A stretch of DNA of 64,000 nucleotides from Escherichia coli (GCF_001677475.2 NZ_CP015229.1), one strand, 5' to 3'; counted from the first letter of the stretch, positions 2,405 to 9,000 are shown. Numbers and translations are program-made. The notes: a model not told the origin generated them from the letters alone.

Positions 2405-3748
2405 ATGAGTTGGAATAACCGGGTGGTCTGGAGTGAAGGACAATTTTTGTTGCCACAGATGTTTCAGCAGCAGGAACGCTATCTGGAACATGTCATTCAT
2501 TATCGCAGTTTGCCTCTTTCACCTTTTTACTGGGGTTTCAATGAGTATGGTATTGGTAGTGAGGCGCTGAACATCGGAAAACTGGTACTTACGAAGGCTT
2601 CCGGGGTATTTGCTGACGGTACACCTTTTAATGCGCCGGGTCATACACCACTCCCGCCGCCGCTGACCATCCTTCCAGAACATCTTAACCAGTTGATTTA
2701 TCTGGCTGTGCCAATACGTACGCCGAACAGTGAAGAAACCAGTTTCGACAATAACCCTGAATCACTGGCACGTTTTTCGGTACATGAAAGTGAAATCCGT
2801 GATGCCAATTCGCTGGGGCGAGGCGCGCAACTGCTGCAACTTAGCCACCTGCGCTTGCGACTGTTACCGGAAAAGGCGGTGACAGACGCGTGGATCGGCC
2901 TGCCGCTGACGCGCATCACGGCGCTGCATCCCGATGGTCGGGTCGATATAGACAAAGAGTTGATCCCGCCAGTGGCGAACTACCAGGCCAGTACGCTGAT
3001 ATGTACCTGGCTGTCGTGGATTAACGATCTGATAAAAATGCGTGCAGATTCGCTGGCGGAACGATTGACGGGGAGCGACAAACACGGTCATGAAGCGGCG
3101 GAAGTGTCGGATTACCTGCTTCTGCAAGTTCTTAATCGTTTCGGCCCCTTATTGATCCATATGTCGAAAACGCCGCTATCGCCTGAAGTACTTTATCGTA
3201 ACCTCTGCGCACTGGCCGGAGAACTCTCTACCTACGTGCGTCCGCAAACACGTCGTCCGGAAGAATATAAAGAATATAAGCACCTGACGCCCTATGCCGG
3301 GCTGAAATCGGTGGTGGACGAGGTTCAGTATCTACTGAATGCTGTGCTAATACGTGGGGCGCAGCGAATCCCTCTGGAAGAGGGAACTTACGGTATTCTC
3401 AATGCGGTGGTTGAACCTACCGAACTGTCAGATTTCAGCTCGTTAGTATTGGCGGTGAAGGCACAGATGTCCGCCGACACCTTACTACAACATTTTTCGG
3501 CTCAGACCAAAATAGGGCCGTCAGAACGCCTGCCGGAACTGATTCGCTCGCACCTTCCTGGTCTTGTTCTACAGGTGCTGCCAGTGCCACCGCGTCAGAT
3601 CCCGTTCCAGTCCGGTTACATCTATTACGACATCCGCCGCGACGGCGTGTTGTGGGAACATATCGCCCGCTATGGTGGCATGGCAATGCATACCGCCGGA
3701 GAGTTTCCAGGGCTGGAGCTGGAGCTGTGGGGAGTTCGCGATAAATGA
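2405..3748 (+). CDS. tssK: T6SS baseplate protein TssK
   Basis: 447 aa; N-terminus W..GQFLLPQMFQQQERYLEH typical of TssK; order tssJ-tssK-tssL. Confidence 0.85.
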   Translation: MSWNNRVVWSEGQFLLPQMFQQQERYLEHVIHYRSLPLSPFYWGFNEYGIGSEALNIGKLVLTKASGVFADGTPFNAPGHTPLPPPLTILPEHLNQLIYLAVPIRTPNSEETSFDNNPESLARFSVHESEIRDANSLGRGAQLLQLSHLRLRLLPEKAVTDAWIGLPLTRITALHPDGRVDIDKELIPPVANYQASTLICTWLSWINDLIKMRADSLAERLTGSDKHGHEAAEVSDYLLLQVLNRFGPLLIHMSKTPLSPEVLYRNLCALAGELSTYVRPQTRRPEEYKEYKHLTPYAGLKSVVDEVQYLLNAVLIRGAQRIPLEEGTYGILNAVVEPTELSDFSSLVLAVKAQMSADTLLQHFSAQTKIGPSERLPELIRSHLPGLVLQVLPVPPRQIPFQSGYIYYDIRRDGVLWEHIARYGGMAMHTAGEFPGLELELWGVRDK

Positions 3749-4464
3749 CCGACGATATTCTGACGCAACCTGCGGTGAATACCCTGCAATTACAGCCTTC
3801 AATGAGGGGAACAAGGTCGCCTGATAATGACGGTTACGATACGCTCGTCCAGGACAGCCTTCGCAGGGAAGATATAAAGGTGGTGGTTGAAGACGGGCCA
3901 GATTTGAAGCTCCGCTTGGCTGAGATCACTGCTGCTGTGAATCCTCTTCTGGCGGCGGCCAGCCCTCTGTTATGCGCGCTGGCGCAAATGCCCCGTGAAC
4001 TTTCCCCTGGTTTTGTCGAACATTATCGCGCCCTACTGGAGCGTGAAGTCCGCCGGTATCAGACGCTGTGCGACCAGGCAAACCTGCGCCGCGAACATGT
4101 GCTGGCGGTACGTTACTGCGTGTGCACGGCGCTGGATGAAGCTGCCAACAACACCGTCTGGGGGCGACGCGGTGTCTGGGCCGGGAAGAGCCTGCTGGTG
4201 ACTTTTCATGGCGAAAGTGAAGGCGGCATCAAGCTGTTTCAGATAATCGGGCGTCTGGCCGCCAGCTTCCAGGAGCACAGCGATGTACTGGAAATCATTT
4301 ACCACATTCTGGGACTGGGTTTTGAAGGCCGCTACAGTGTACGGCCTGACGGGCGTAAACAACTGGACGATATCCGCCAGCAACTGCTGACTCAACTGGT
4401 CCAGCGTCGCGATCCGATCACGCCGACGCTCTTGCCGGGTTTTGCCGGTGCCGTCAGTGGGTGA
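3745..4464 (+). CDS. tssL: T6SS membrane-complex protein TssL (DotU-like), cytoplasmic domain; ends at in-frame TGA
   Basis: 239 aa, position after tssK; no TM helix in this ORF; next ORF is in the same frame. Confidence 0.75.
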   Translation: MTDDILTQPAVNTLQLQPSMRGTRSPDNDGYDTLVQDSLRREDIKVVVEDGPDLKLRLAEITAAVNPLLAAASPLLCALAQMPRELSPGFVEHYRALLEREVRRYQTLCDQANLRREHVLAVRYCVCTALDEAANNTVWGRRGVWAGKSLLVTFHGESEGGIKLFQIIGRLAASFQEHSDVLEIIYHILGLGFEGRYSVRPDGRKQLDDIRQQLLTQLVQRRDPITPTLLPGFAGAVSG

Positions 4465-5061
4465 ATGCGGCGGATGCGCCGGGTGCCGGTCTGGCTGAGC
4501 GCCGGAATCGCCCTGCTGGTGATGCTGACGCTGTTTGGCCTTTACAGCCACCGGATGAACCTCGCCACCGAAACCGTACAACAGCGTATCGACGCCATTG
4601 GTAAAAATCTTCCGCCGCCACCCGTTCCGGTGCATAAACTGCGGTTGAAAATCCTGCTGGCGAACGAAATCGCCCGTGGCCTGCTGACGGTGGAGGAAGA
4701 TGACCATCACAGCCGTGTAATCTTTCGTGGCGATACGATGTTTATACCGGGGCAGAAAACCGTGAATGATGCGCTGCGCCCGGTGATTGACAAGGCCGCG
4801 CGTGAGATTGCGCGTGTGGGGGGCGCGGTGACGGTGACCGGCCACACGGACAGCCAGCCGATCCACTCCGCTGAATTCCCGTCCAACCAGGTATTGTCGG
4901 AAAAACGTGCGGCAGAAGTAGCTTCGCTGCTGACATCTGGTGGCGTTCCGGCTAGCCGAATTCGGGGTGTCGGTAAAGGGGATACTATGCCGGTGGCTGA
5001 TAATAGTACTAAAACTGGACGAGCGCAGAATCGCCGGGTGGAAATTCTGGTGGTGGAGTGA
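4465..5061 (+). CDS. TM-anchored OmpA/MotB-like peptidoglycan-binding domain protein (TssL C-terminal part / TagL-like)
   Basis: N-terminal TM helix (VPVWLSAGIALLVMLTLFGL) then OmpA-like C-terminus (...VTGHTDSQP...RAQNRRVEILVVE); same frame as tssL. Confidence 0.8.
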   Translation: MRRMRRVPVWLSAGIALLVMLTLFGLYSHRMNLATETVQQRIDAIGKNLPPPPVPVHKLRLKILLANEIARGLLTVEEDDHHSRVIFRGDTMFIPGQKTVNDALRPVIDKAAREIARVGGAVTVTGHTDSQPIHSAEFPSNQVLSEKRAAEVASLLTSGGVPASRIRGVGKGDTMPVADNSTKTGRAQNRRVEILVVE

Positions 5062-5068
5062 ATTAATA

Positions 5069-5755
5069 ATGGAAAAGCTAGAGTGTAATGCGTCTAACCA
5101 TTCGCCAGTGTGGGGAGTAACAGAATTTATATTCTGGAAACTGGCGCCTAAAAAATGGGGGGGAGGCGTAGCATTTGGGCGTTATTTTAAAGATGGTTGG
5201 GTGAAGCATAACGGTCTTTTGATCAATGCAGCTGCAAATGCCTGGCATTTACCTGCCCCCTTACTTGCTGGAGTTTGTTGGATTGAAGTAGGGGGTGATC
5301 CTCAGATTATAGACACGCTGGCATTTGAATTTCGTGCTATGAGTTGGAGTGGGCCTGAATGGGTTGATGAACATATCACAATCGCTTCGAAACCAGAAAA
5401 AACTTCTTTTGGTGCGGTGAGTATGCAATTGCGAACTGCAGCCAGAACACTCGGGCTTGATGAGACTAAAATGGACAACTCTCAGTTGCGTGAGCTGGCA
5501 AATTGTCTCCAGCATGATGTGTTTAATATACAATTAGCTGCAAGACATCTTTATCAATTGGCTGAAAAAGATGGTTTTCAGGTATCCTTACCTCACCTGA
5601 CAAAAGAACAAATAAGAATTATTGGAGCTCGTTATAATCGAGGTGTTTCCCTTAGTCTGGAAAAAATAAAGGAAGATACCAGCTATGGCGATTTTATTAT
5701 AAATAACTGGTTACATTTCTCTAGTTTATTAATAACTACCTGGAAGTCTTCATGA
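5069..5755 (+). CDS. Lytic-transglycosylase/lysozyme-like (SLT-type) protein, T6SS-associated
   Basis: Motifs reminiscent of SLT domains (...WIEVGGDP..., ...FGAVSMQL..., ...GARYNRG...); no signal peptide; ATG with RBS downstream of track start. Confidence 0.45.
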   Translation: MEKLECNASNHSPVWGVTEFIFWKLAPKKWGGGVAFGRYFKDGWVKHNGLLINAAANAWHLPAPLLAGVCWIEVGGDPQIIDTLAFEFRAMSWSGPEWVDEHITIASKPEKTSFGAVSMQLRTAARTLGLDETKMDNSQLRELANCLQHDVFNIQLAARHLYQLAEKDGFQVSLPHLTKEQIRIIGARYNRGVSLSLEKIKEDTSYGDFIINNWLHFSSLLITTWKSS

Positions 5756-6039
5756 GAAAAATAATTCAGATATCAGGGTGGTTATTATTTATTATGGGAT
5801 TGGTCACTATCATGCTTTTTTCCGGGAGTGAGTACCAGTGGATGCAGGATATGGACCCTTCAATAACAGCATTACCTCAGGGAAACGGAAATAGAGATGT
5901 AATCAGAAAATTAATTTATTCTATTTCAGTGGCTATTCAGATTGTTCTTTATTTTCTTTCAGTATCGCGTACAGGAAAGGGATTTTCAGCCCTGGGTATT
6001 TTGCTATTACTGATTACCGCATGGAGCTCTGAACAATAA
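5752..6039 (+). CDS. Small integral membrane protein (2-3 TM helices); possible immunity/accessory
   Basis: 95 aa, hydrophobic helices; overlaps neighbours by ATGA/TAATG junctions. Confidence 0.4.
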   Translation: MRKIIQISGWLLFIMGLVTIMLFSGSEYQWMQDMDPSITALPQGNGNRDVIRKLIYSISVAIQIVLYFLSVSRTGKGFSALGILLLLITAWSSEQ

Positions 6040-9000
6040 TGCAAAAATTTCTCAGTCTGCTGTTTTCCCGCCGCACACTGGCCGTTGTCGGCGTGGTGGT
6101 GCTGGCGTTGCTGGTCTGGTTTATCGGGCCGCTGGTGGCGTTTGACACCTTGCATCCGCTTGCGTCCGTGGGTAGCCGGGTAGTCACTATCGTTCTGTTA
6201 CTGATGTTCCTTGCACTGTGGCTGGTTAACTGGTCGATGAGCATCATTGGCGTTACGGTTCTGTGCCTGGTTATCGGCTTTGTCTCACCGTTGCTGGCCT
6301 TCGGTGATGTTTATCCATTTGCGCCGCTGTGGCTGCGTCTGACGCTTATCGGCCTGATCCTTCTGTCTTATACGCTGTATGGCCTGTACCGATTGTGGCG
6401 GGCGCTGCGTCTGGATGAACAACTGCTGCGCCGTTTCCTGCATCCGCGCGGGGAAGATGTTCCGGTGGCAGGGGAAATTAAAGCCGACTTACGCACCGTC
6501 AGCCATATTGTCACTCGCGCTATTCGGCAACTGAAGCAACTGCGCGTAGACCTGCCGGGTTGGCGTAAGGTGCTGGAAGGAAAGCGTTTTCTGTACGAAC
6601 TGCCGTGGTTCATGGTTATCGGCAGCCCCGGTGATGGTAAAACTACCGCGCTGCTTAACACCGGGCTACAGTTTCCGCTGGCGGAGCAGATGGAGCAGAC
6701 CGCGCATATCCTTACCGTGCCGGGCGGCGGCACGCTGCACTGCGACTGGTGGTTCACCAACGAAGCGGTGCTCATTGACACTGCCGGGCGCTATGCCCGC
6801 CACGATGACGGCGGTGAAATCAGTGCGACCCAGCGCAACGCCGGGGAATGGCAGGGGTTTCTGGGACTGCTGCGTAAACACCGTCCCGGCGCACCGCTGA
6901 ACGGCGTTATCCTGACGCTAAACGTGGCGGATCTGACCGCGCAGTCCCCGGCGGAACGACTGGCTGCCTGTGCGGCTTTGCGTGCGCGGCTGGCTGAACT
7001 GCGTGAGACGCTGGGTATTCGTTTCCCGGTTTATCTGGTTGTCACTAAGATGGATCTGCTGCCGGGCTTTACGGAGTATTTCCGTGGGCTGACCAGTCAC
7101 CTGCGTGCCCAGGTCTGGGGCTTCACCCTGCCATACAGCCGCAGGCGTCACGCCAGCGATCCGCAGTCGTTGCATGCGCTCTGTGGCCAGGAACTGGCAA
7201 ATCTGACGCTGCGGCTGGATCAGGGGCTGGATACCCGGTTGCAGGAAGAGTACGACCTTAAAAGCCGTCAACGGCTCTACCGCTTTCCGCGCGAATTTGC
7301 CGCGCTGGGCGCGCCGCTGCTGGAAGCCATTGAACAGATTTTCCTCGATTCAAAATTTGACGCCACTCAGCTTAACAACACCCTACGCGGCGTATTTTTT
7401 ACCAGCGCCGCACAGGCGCAGGCAGACGCGGTGGCCGATCAGACGGGCATCTGGCAGCGCTTTGTCCGGGCGATCAAAGGGAAAGTGGAGTCACCTTCTC
7501 ATACCTTACCGGACGGCAACCGCAGCTATTTTCTTCATGACCTACTGACCCAGTTTATCTTCCGTGAAGCACACCTGGTGGAGCCGAATCTTCAATGGGC
7601 CTGGCGTTATCGCCTGCTGCGTACTGGCGGGCATCTGCTGGTACTAGCGTTGGCTTTCTGGTTGTGGCAGGGAATGCAGGGCAGCCAGCAGGGTAACAGC
7701 GGCTATCTGAATGAAATCGCCAGCCGGACGGTCCAACTGGATGGTGACGTCAAAGCCTATACCGGAAAACCTGCTATGCAGCCTGTCCCAGTCCTGTTGA
7801 ACCAGGCGCGGGCGCTCTCTGCCTGGCCGGGGCTGGACCCGGACTCACCGCCGCTGGCCTGGCGTTATGGTCTTTACAGCGTTCCGCCAGTAATGGAGAG
7901 CGTCGCATCCCTGTATGACCGTCTGCTGGACCAGCTCCTATTGCCGCCACTGGTGAAGCGCATGGAATATGTGCTTTCAGATGCCATTGCTCGTCAGGAC
8001 AGCAAAGCCGCGTATGACGCTCTGCATGTTTATCTGCTGCTGAATCTTGATAAAGACCACGAGGACAAATACAACGCAGCGGAGATCCACGCCTGGGTAC
8101 TGAACGATCTGGAAAACCGCGATAGCGTGGCGGAGTTCGGCGGCCGTGCAGCAGTGCTGGAACATATCGACGCCCTGTTTGACGGCAGCCGTGTGGTGCA
8201 TTCGCCTTATGACAAAGATGAGGGACTGATCCGCATGGCGCGGGCTTTCCTTGACGGTCATACCAGCACCGAGCGTATCTATACTCGAGCCCTGGCTTCC
8301 ATGGAGAGCGAAGCACCGCAGGAGTTTTCGCTGGTTCGCGCGGTGGGCGCGGATGCGGGGACGGTTTTTGTCCGCACGGATGGCGCGCCACTGGATAGGG
8401 GCGTGCCCGGCATCTTTACTCGCGAAGGCTACCGGGAACTGTTCGACAAACGGCTGTCGGAGTTTGTCGCCTCCGCATCAGCGGACGACGCCTGGGTAAT
8501 GGGCCGGGAAAACGCGCAAAAAAAAACGACTGATATTGTGATGAGCCAGTTGCCGGGGCAGGAACTCCCGGTTACCCGTGAGGTACGCCGCCTGTATCTG
8601 GCTGAATATGCCCGCCGCTGGCAGGATTTTCTGGCTAGTATTCACAGCATCAACAGTGCCGGGGAAGACGGTAGTCCCGGACTGGCGTATGACCTTCAGG
8701 TGCTTCGCACACTGGCCTCGCCTGACTCACCTCTGATGCGCCTGAGTAAAGCGGTGGTGGAGCAGACCACGCTGGTACCGCCGCTGGATGCGCAGGCCAG
8801 ACAAAAACAAATGGCCCAGCGCGCGCAGGACCGGCTCTCCGGTAATGCGGGTAAAGCAGTGCAGACGGCAAAGCTGTTGCAGGATATCCACCCGGAAGAG
8901 CGGCTGGAAAAATCGCTGGTGGATGACCGTTTCGCCGCTCTGCGGGAAGTGGTTTCCGGGCGGACGGACAGTGGACAGGGGGGCGGGGCGCCGCAGTTAA

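Follow-up and report, generated by a model that had tools for sequence, protein, structure and literature searches.

The question raised by this locus is what two small hypothetical genes are doing between tssL and tssM of a type VI secretion system (T6SS). They lie in a 64,000-nucleotide stretch of Escherichia coli DNA (GCF_001677475.2, NZ_CP015229.1; hereafter the window), the first 16 kb of which is an E. coli-type T6SS cluster. We refer to them as A (5069-5755, plus strand, 228 amino acids) and B (5752-6039, plus strand, 95 amino acids); RefSeq labels both products hypothetical protein. The initial annotation of the window saw motifs resembling those of SLT lytic transglycosylases in A, and considered that the protein could either remodel peptidoglycan for T6SS assembly or be a glycoside-hydrolase effector with B as its membrane immunity protein. 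Of these two roles the second has fared well and the first has not. We propose, with a probability of roughly three in four, that A-B is an antibacterial effector-immunity cassette, gained by horizontal transfer and serving as cargo of this E. coli T6SS: A would be a lysozyme-fold glycan cutter and B its membrane antidote. This reading is favoured because the pair is mobile, its linkage to T6SS and toxin genes is varied, its slot is exchangeable, relatives of A are fused as toxin modules and B behaves like an antidote; the assembly role suffers from the lack of an export route for A and of a tie to the T6SS core.

The product of A starts at an ATG and contains CWIEVGGDP, FGAVSMQLRT and GARYNRG, exactly the SLT-like motifs that had been noticed. 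Its reported lack of an export signal was also borne out: a hydropathy and sequence scan found no signal peptide, lipobox or transmembrane (TM) segment, and the Kyte-Doolittle 19-residue mean in a simple hydropathy scan peaked at 1.12 over the whole protein and at 0.3 in its first 40 windows, so that there is no hydrophobic N-terminus. The protein is made in the cytoplasm. Neither Pfam, even at E ≤ 10 and with SLT (PF01464) included, nor NCBIfam gave a match to A; phmmer against the PDB gave no meaningful match, the lone hit being a spurious one to Tpp49 at E 1.1, and a family profile (alignment A1) recovered no SLT protein from the PDB. Homologues numbered 323 at E ≤ 1e-3, the aligned beta- and gammaproteobacterial relatives being 51-63% identical, and a profile search of 1.84 billion representative proteins returned 441 clusters with members of the family, which spans Proteobacteria, Cyanobacteria, Actinobacteria and Bacteroidota. 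Pfam SLT matches were present in just six of 68 distant relatives (E 0.004-0.1), and the relatives in AFDB50 are either uncharacterised or named 'Transglycosylase SLT domain-containing protein'.

Structure prediction gave A the lysozyme/SLT-like fold that the motifs had led the initial annotation to expect. The fold comparison matched it to Slt (score 10.1), MltE (9.8), MltC (9.4), MltF (9.2), Slt70 (9.1) and goose-type lysozyme (8.4), and the top PDB matches in Foldseek, although weak (E 0.08-0.6), were MltE and g-type lysozymes. Across 122 aligned representatives the invariant residues were limited to E73, G76 and S113, while Q120, R188, Y189, N190, G192, Y206 and G207 were nearly so, and the motifs followed the canonical SLT order of E73, G115-x-V-S-x-Q120 and R188-Y-N-R-G192 (alignments A1 and A4). 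The family motifs can be written as TSFGxVSxQ (residues 112-120), RYNRG (188-192) and YG (206-207), and Glu73, encoded at 5285-5287 on the plus strand, is the putative catalytic residue. A is thus modelled as a lysozyme-like catalytic domain with a conserved catalytic acid; this lysozyme/SLT-like fold with a catalytic Glu is well supported by the models, and formal membership of A in the Pfam SLT or Tse3 families is not supported. The broad A4 profile did find Tse3 in the PDB (E ~0.4, weak and not significant alone). In that alignment E73 of A falls on the Glu of ...ILAEQ..., residue 250 in 3wa5 numbering, which we take to be the catalytic E250, and TSFG..Q falls on TSIGLGQ of Tse3. The same profile also matched 'protein A' repeats and STIM2, both rejected as spurious low-complexity matches; only the Tse3 alignment was biologically coherent. 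One further feature of A is a highly conserved insertion at residues 76-117 (DPxFIDRVAFEVRxFDWSGPxWxDxxLTITxxPxKTSFG), which has no counterpart in canonical SLT domains and for which the predicted local distance difference test score (pLDDT) was ~40 when A was modelled alone.

B was described correctly as a multi-TM protein of 95 amino acids next to A, and has three hydrophobic segments near residues 7-25, 50-70 and 77-92. The first of these is followed by a conserved motif, (K/E)Y-x-W-M...D-P-S-I (Y28, D35-I38). Since both the N-terminus and the TM2-TM3 loop are basic, the positive-inside rule predicts an N-in topology with the conserved motif facing the periplasm. Homologues of B by sequence were few (30, nearly all from E. 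coli-type samples). A protein of 94-115 amino acids with the same three-TM layout and the same motif after TM1 nevertheless lies directly 3' of the A homologue in nearly all inspected loci, and a hidden Markov model (HMM) built from six such partners retrieved the ORF (open reading frame) downstream of A in ~50 loci. The partners are far more diverged than the enzymes, at 24-34% identity versus 51-63% for the aligned relatives of A. Given this adjacency and co-inheritance, and a loop for which hydropathy and the positive-inside rule predict periplasmic exposure, B is predicted to be the cognate immunity protein of A in the inner membrane. The B family appears to be distantly related to DUF2645 (PF10840) and to grade into it. 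Precomputed PF10840 matches exist for B homologues of 78-80% identity; of 26 partner proteins tested with the DUF2645 HMM, three gave matches at E ≤ 0.001 and 11 at E ≤ 0.1; and hhalign gave an alignment to E. coli YgiZ with 84.6% probability over 29 columns; the window's own B reached no score with the DUF2645 HMM and was not significantly similar to YgiZ by BLASTP.

A and B are real genes and not chance ORFs. Upstream of A, a Shine-Dalgarno-like GGAG (5055-5058) within the 3' end of tssL is ten bases from the A start, with the tssL TGA at 5059-5061 and the A ATG at 5069-5071. The A stop and the B start share an ATGA overlap (5752-5755), indicating translational coupling, and the B stop and tssM start share TAATG (6037-6041), so that B and tssM are also coupled and the cassette fits without a seam into the tssJKL-tssM operon; all these junctions were read from the plus strand. 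The two genes are AT-rich, as had been stated at the outset, with GC contents of 0.413 for A and 0.368 for B (0.32 and 0.34 at third codon positions) against 0.588 for the flanking C-terminal part of tssL and 0.594 for tssM. These values resemble those of the cargo cassettes of the same cluster (Tai4 0.379, Tae4 0.405, an HExxH protein 0.359 and its 128-amino-acid neighbour 0.354) and not those of the core genes (0.49-0.65). The position given for the pair, between 'tssL-OmpA' and tssM, was right, but 'tssL-OmpA' is only the C-terminal half of a long-form tssL (3745-5061). An in-frame TGA at 4462-4464, which is CGA in E. coli 2012C-4221 and CGG in E. coli A20, splits this gene into a cytoplasmic DotU part (3745-4464) and a TM and OmpA part that restarts at the next codon, ATG 4465. 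Strain A20, which has the cluster most closely related to this one, is 97% identical to the window across 4400-6400. We note that in A20 hcp is split by the IS21-like element ISEc62 and tssM is annotated as frameshifted (L001 3788-6401 and 10640-14505). It appears that this T6SS type is decaying in some lineages while its cargo genes persist, and the clusters of the window and of A20 may both be on this path.

The distribution of the pair is that of a mobile cassette of two genes, which occurs across Proteobacteria and for the most part lies away from T6SS clusters. As an isolated two-gene unit it occurs in unrelated contexts in Yersinia pseudotuberculosis, Burkholderia ambifaria, Methylobacter and Rhodanobacter, and a T6SS marker was present in about 15 of 63 genome loci, the others being orphan pairs. 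The markers were sought with BLAST and with iterative HMM searches that started from E. coli proteins, which underestimates linkage; a search with the Hcp proteins of Serratia and the E. coli island described below added no members. Where the pair is linked to T6SS genes, its position varies. It occupies the tssL-tssM slot in E. coli and one other lineage and follows tagF in Snodgrassella; it forms hcp-A-B triads on a Serratia fonticola plasmid, in Pseudomonas caricapapayae, in a Burkholderiaceae metagenome-assembled genome and in an E. coli chromosomal island, and it adjoins a convergent hcp in five other Pseudomonas genomes. A vgrG adjoins it in two loci, and Rhs is near or fused in four. 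On a Salmonella enterica contig A-B comes first in an array that continues with Rap1a-Tae4, Glucosaminidase-Tgi2PP and DUF2195x2-Tlde1 and ends at vgrG. Within E. coli, A-B was found in the tssL-tssM slot of 98 of 5426 complete genomes. In strain 2012C-4221 (L077 2254-3067) and several others the slot instead holds a 122-amino-acid tlde1-domain protein and a 147-amino-acid hypothetical protein. In this type of E. coli T6SS the tssL-tssM junction is a slot at which cargo is exchanged. The best explanation of the pair in the window is that it was horizontally acquired.

The relatives of A also point to a toxin. The A domain was nearly always C-terminal in 121 representatives, behind N-terminal extensions of 0-679 amino acids. 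The N-terminal regions of 68 long relatives included eCIS_core/DUF4157 (10), OmpA (5), PG_binding_1 (4-6) and PAAR (2-3), with DUF4280, RHS, WXG100, TseH and Pesticin as further domains, and AFDB models add RHS, WXG100, PAAR, SPP1-portal-type and peptidoglycan-binding architectures. For example, the domain forms the C-terminus of a 1491-amino-acid protein on plasmid2 of Nostoc sp. HK-01 (L011 2251-7866), and of a 460-amino-acid Streptomyces protein within a polymorphic-toxin neighbourhood. The ORF after the Nostoc gene encodes 349 amino acids annotated as an arginyl-tRNA synthetase (argS_2), not a three-TM partner. Judged by these architectures, the A domain behaves as a polymorphic-toxin module, and the peptidoglycan-binding domains to which it is fused in some relatives support a cell-wall target. 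Together with the tssJKL-tssM operon, the hcp triads, the vgrG-adjacent loci and the Salmonella array, the PAAR and Rhs fusions link the family to T6SS.

In some loci A has decayed, through a frameshift, truncation by an insertion sequence (IS) or loss of all save the last 50-60 codons (L014, L048, L049, L050, L055, L073, L075 and L076). The three-TM gene is intact beside decayed A in seven loci, a count that does not take in L076 (Moraxella porci); examples are found in E. coli E69, Siccibacter colletis, Burkholderia puraquae, B. latens (where an ISAs1 insertion truncates A), Paracidovorax anthurii, Pluralibacter and Phytobacter diazotrophicus. It is because B stays intact where its enzyme has been frameshifted, interrupted or reduced to a remnant that we regard it as antidote-like. 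The same pattern is seen at the E. coli mdaB-qseC locus, where a 236-amino-acid paralogue of A (A'; 37% identity, E 1e-32) is flanked by an orphan hcp on one side and by ygiZ, a DUF2645 gene, on the other (L079 4456-5987); DUF2645 proteins follow A-like genes both here and on the Serratia plasmid. The full hcp-A'-ygiZ island was present in 1262 of the 5426 complete genomes and most of the sampled remainder had ygiZ alone, ygiZ being near-universal in E. coli without the enzyme gene. This is the distribution expected of an orphan immunity gene, which offers a function for the K-12 protein and suggests that YgiZ is an orphan T6SS immunity protein. None of the papers returned by literature searches connects YgiZ or DUF2645 with T6SS or immunity.

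We propose the following model for the cassette. A, which lacks a signal peptide, would be synthesised in the cytoplasm and would probably be loaded into the Hcp tube, as its small size and the frequent position of its homologues directly after an orphan hcp suggest. Injection would next bring it into the periplasm of Gram-negative neighbours, where its goose-lysozyme/SLT-like domain, with Glu73 as general acid, may cut the MurNAc-GlcNAc (N-acetylmuramic acid-N-acetylglucosamine) backbone, as a hydrolase or as a lytic transglycosylase, and so cause lysis. B would display its short conserved loop (Y-x-W-M...DPSI) at the periplasmic face of the inner membrane, and could bind or sequester incoming A there, protecting the producer and its kin.

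Several points weigh against this proposal. Secretion, toxicity, enzymatic activity and neutralisation are all things that we infer from sequence, and the link to the known muramidase Tse3 is non-significant by sequence in a protein that also lacks a Pfam SLT match. The known immunity proteins of T6SS muramidases, such as Tsi3 and Tgi2, are soluble or lipoprotein periplasmic proteins, not polytopic membrane proteins, and it is mechanistically puzzling how a B loop of ~25 residues would neutralise an enzyme. An AlphaFold2 model of a fused A-linker-B chain (predicted template modelling score 0.66) raised the pLDDT of residues 76-117 to ~90; no contacts were reported and its multiple sequence alignment differed from that of the run with A alone, so that this model neither shows nor excludes an interface. 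About three-quarters of the 63 genome loci had no T6SS marker within 10 kb in the insensitive BLAST and HMM search, a low count that is softened by orphan pairs being common for T6SS cargo. With the in-frame stop in tssL, the T6SS of this window may not fire; the strain may have an impaired system, or one that functions with TssL in two parts.

The explanation that best survives alongside an effector-immunity cassette keeps A as an injected toxin and changes what it does: its lysozyme-like scaffold might act on a substrate other than mature peptidoglycan, such as lipid II or nascent uncross-linked strands, or might bind and not catalyse. We consider this unlikely. A membrane-proximal substrate would account for the antidote being integral to the membrane, and the family-specific insertion at 76-117 may be involved in such a membrane-proximal variant of A action.

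Another possibility is that A-B is a domesticated endolysin-holin-like pair in which A, a cytoplasmic muramidase, would be let out through B, for controlled lysis of the producer or for protein release of the holin/endolysin type. The sole hint of a phage was a match to PHROG 11932, a family of unknown function. A tblastn search of 50,697 phage genomes gave no match and no inspected context was a lysis module or prophage. Nor does the behaviour of the partners fit: B is kept where the enzyme is destroyed and ygiZ is near-universal without one, as expected of an antidote and not of a holin, relatives have the enzyme domain joined to toxin-delivery domains, and an N-in/C-out B with a periplasmic motif, as predicted, would be unlike a class I holin. 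The holin/endolysin idea was rejected on context and on the retention of orphan partners, and we give the pair very little chance of being a lysis module.

Slimmer still is the chance that, as the initial annotation had also considered, A opens the producer's own wall for assembly of TssJLM, with B as a membrane tether or regulator. The precedents are MltE, recruited by TssM in enteroaggregative E. coli (EAEC), and TagX in Acinetobacter. With no signal peptide, lipobox or TM segment, A has no known route to the producer's periplasm; most homologous pairs lie in loci without T6SS genes, A is neither conserved with the core nor restricted to it, and within T6SS clusters the pair varies in position (it follows tagF in Snodgrassella and belongs to an effector array in Salmonella). 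The small share of E. coli genomes with the pair in the slot, the Tlde1 cassette that replaces it in sister clusters, the cargo-like and not core-like GC content and the fusion of relatives to PAAR, Rhs, WXG100 and eCIS (extracellular contractile injection system) delivery domains all argue for cargo. A defence system, an idea prompted by restriction-modification and ResIII neighbours in Rhodanobacter, was rejected because PADLOC was empty (no family at E ≤ 0.1 for A or B) and the context is not conserved.

Literature searches on the effector-immunity cassette, which extended to orphan hcp islands and to membrane immunity against muramidase effectors, turned up no account of the A-B family. 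We lean, by a little, towards a broader proposal: that A-B represents an undescribed and widespread polymorphic-toxin module in which an SLT/goose-lysozyme-fold enzyme is delivered by T6SS and, in fused relatives, apparently by eCIS, type VII secretion and Rhs systems, with an integral-membrane three-helix antidote of the DUF2645 superfamily, and that ygiZ, perhaps also yjeO, is orphan T6SS immunity. If this is true, most E. coli keep ygiZ as protection against strains with the hcp-A'-ygiZ island, and DUF2645 proteins, including K-12 YgiZ, gain a testable function. The A family also stands out in that neither Pfam nor NCBIfam recognises it, although it comprises over 400 representative clusters, and in that it uses several delivery platforms; annotation pipelines at present call A and B alike 'hypothetical protein'. 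Its small polytopic membrane partner, in place of a soluble inhibitor, raises the question of whether neutralisation involves a loop mechanism or a membrane-proximal substrate.

The rest of the cluster is of a conventional kind, with cargo pairs of known type beside the core genes. It begins with a BPSL0067-family (Tlde1-like) and STY0301-family pair (263-1135), followed by hcp (1309-1800), tssJ (1847-2401), tssK (2405-3748) and tssL. Beyond A-B come tssM (6039-9905), a second pair of known type in which a Rap1a/Tai-family immunity gene accompanies Tae4 (10152-11320), tagF (11506-12276), the HExxH protein with its 128-amino-acid neighbour (12343-13427) and vgrG (13452-15665), downstream of which is a Rhs-type ORF (16153-20295). 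We note that the genes between tagF and vgrG form a low-GC (0.36/0.35) overlapping pair: the first (12343-13044) encodes 233 amino acids with a HEAGH motif and had no match in Pfam or PADLOC, and the second (13041-13427) encodes the 128-amino-acid protein, the N-terminus of which is signal-peptide-like. Both are labelled hypothetical in RefSeq. They probably form another unannotated effector-immunity pair, possibly with a metallopeptidase as the effector.

Peptidoglycan glycosidase effectors of T6SS are a known class (Tge1-3, VgrG3, TseP), and A-B is an unannotated variant of such effector-immunity pairs, in a comparison that leaves out the Tge3 family (YP_109165.1). Among the closest known systems is Tse3/Tge1 of Pseudomonas aeruginosa, an H1-T6SS muramidase with Tsi3 as its immunity protein (PDB 4luq, 3wa5, 4n80). 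A has no significant sequence similarity to it, phmmer against the PDB giving nothing to link the two, and 16% identity in the structural alignment; A is also a single-domain protein of 228 amino acids, whereas the Tse3 chains in the PDB have ~400. Tsi3 is a soluble periplasmic beta-protein, and the 95-amino-acid three-TM partner of A is unrelated to it. To our knowledge no other peptidoglycan glycosidase has a polytopic membrane protein for its immunity partner. Tge2/Tgi2 of P. protegens and of SPI-6 (Salmonella pathogenicity island 6), which are Pfam Glucosaminidase and T6SS_Tgi2PP proteins, belong to another family with no sequence similarity to A, and Tgi2 is again a soluble periplasmic protein. 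Compared with the family-1 lytic transglycosylases of GH23 (glycoside hydrolase family 23; SLT PF01464, including Slt70, MltE, MltC, MltD and MltF) and the goose-type lysozymes, A has E-V where they have E-S, carries a conserved insertion of ~40 residues between the Glu and the G-x-x-Q motif, lacks an export signal and is paired with a dedicated membrane protein. MltE with TssM in the Sci-1 system of EAEC and TagX in Acinetobacter resemble A in that a peptidoglycan-cleaving fold is tied to T6SS membrane-complex genes. However, MltE and TagX reach the periplasm of the producing cell by export and work in cis, whereas A lacks an export signal, is a mobile gene that mostly lies apart from T6SS cores, and has an immunity-like gene as its partner. 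For B, the nearest counterparts are the DUF2645 inner-membrane proteins YgiZ and YjeO of K-12, which share its size, its three-TM architecture and a (K/E)Y-D/Q-W-M motif after TM1.
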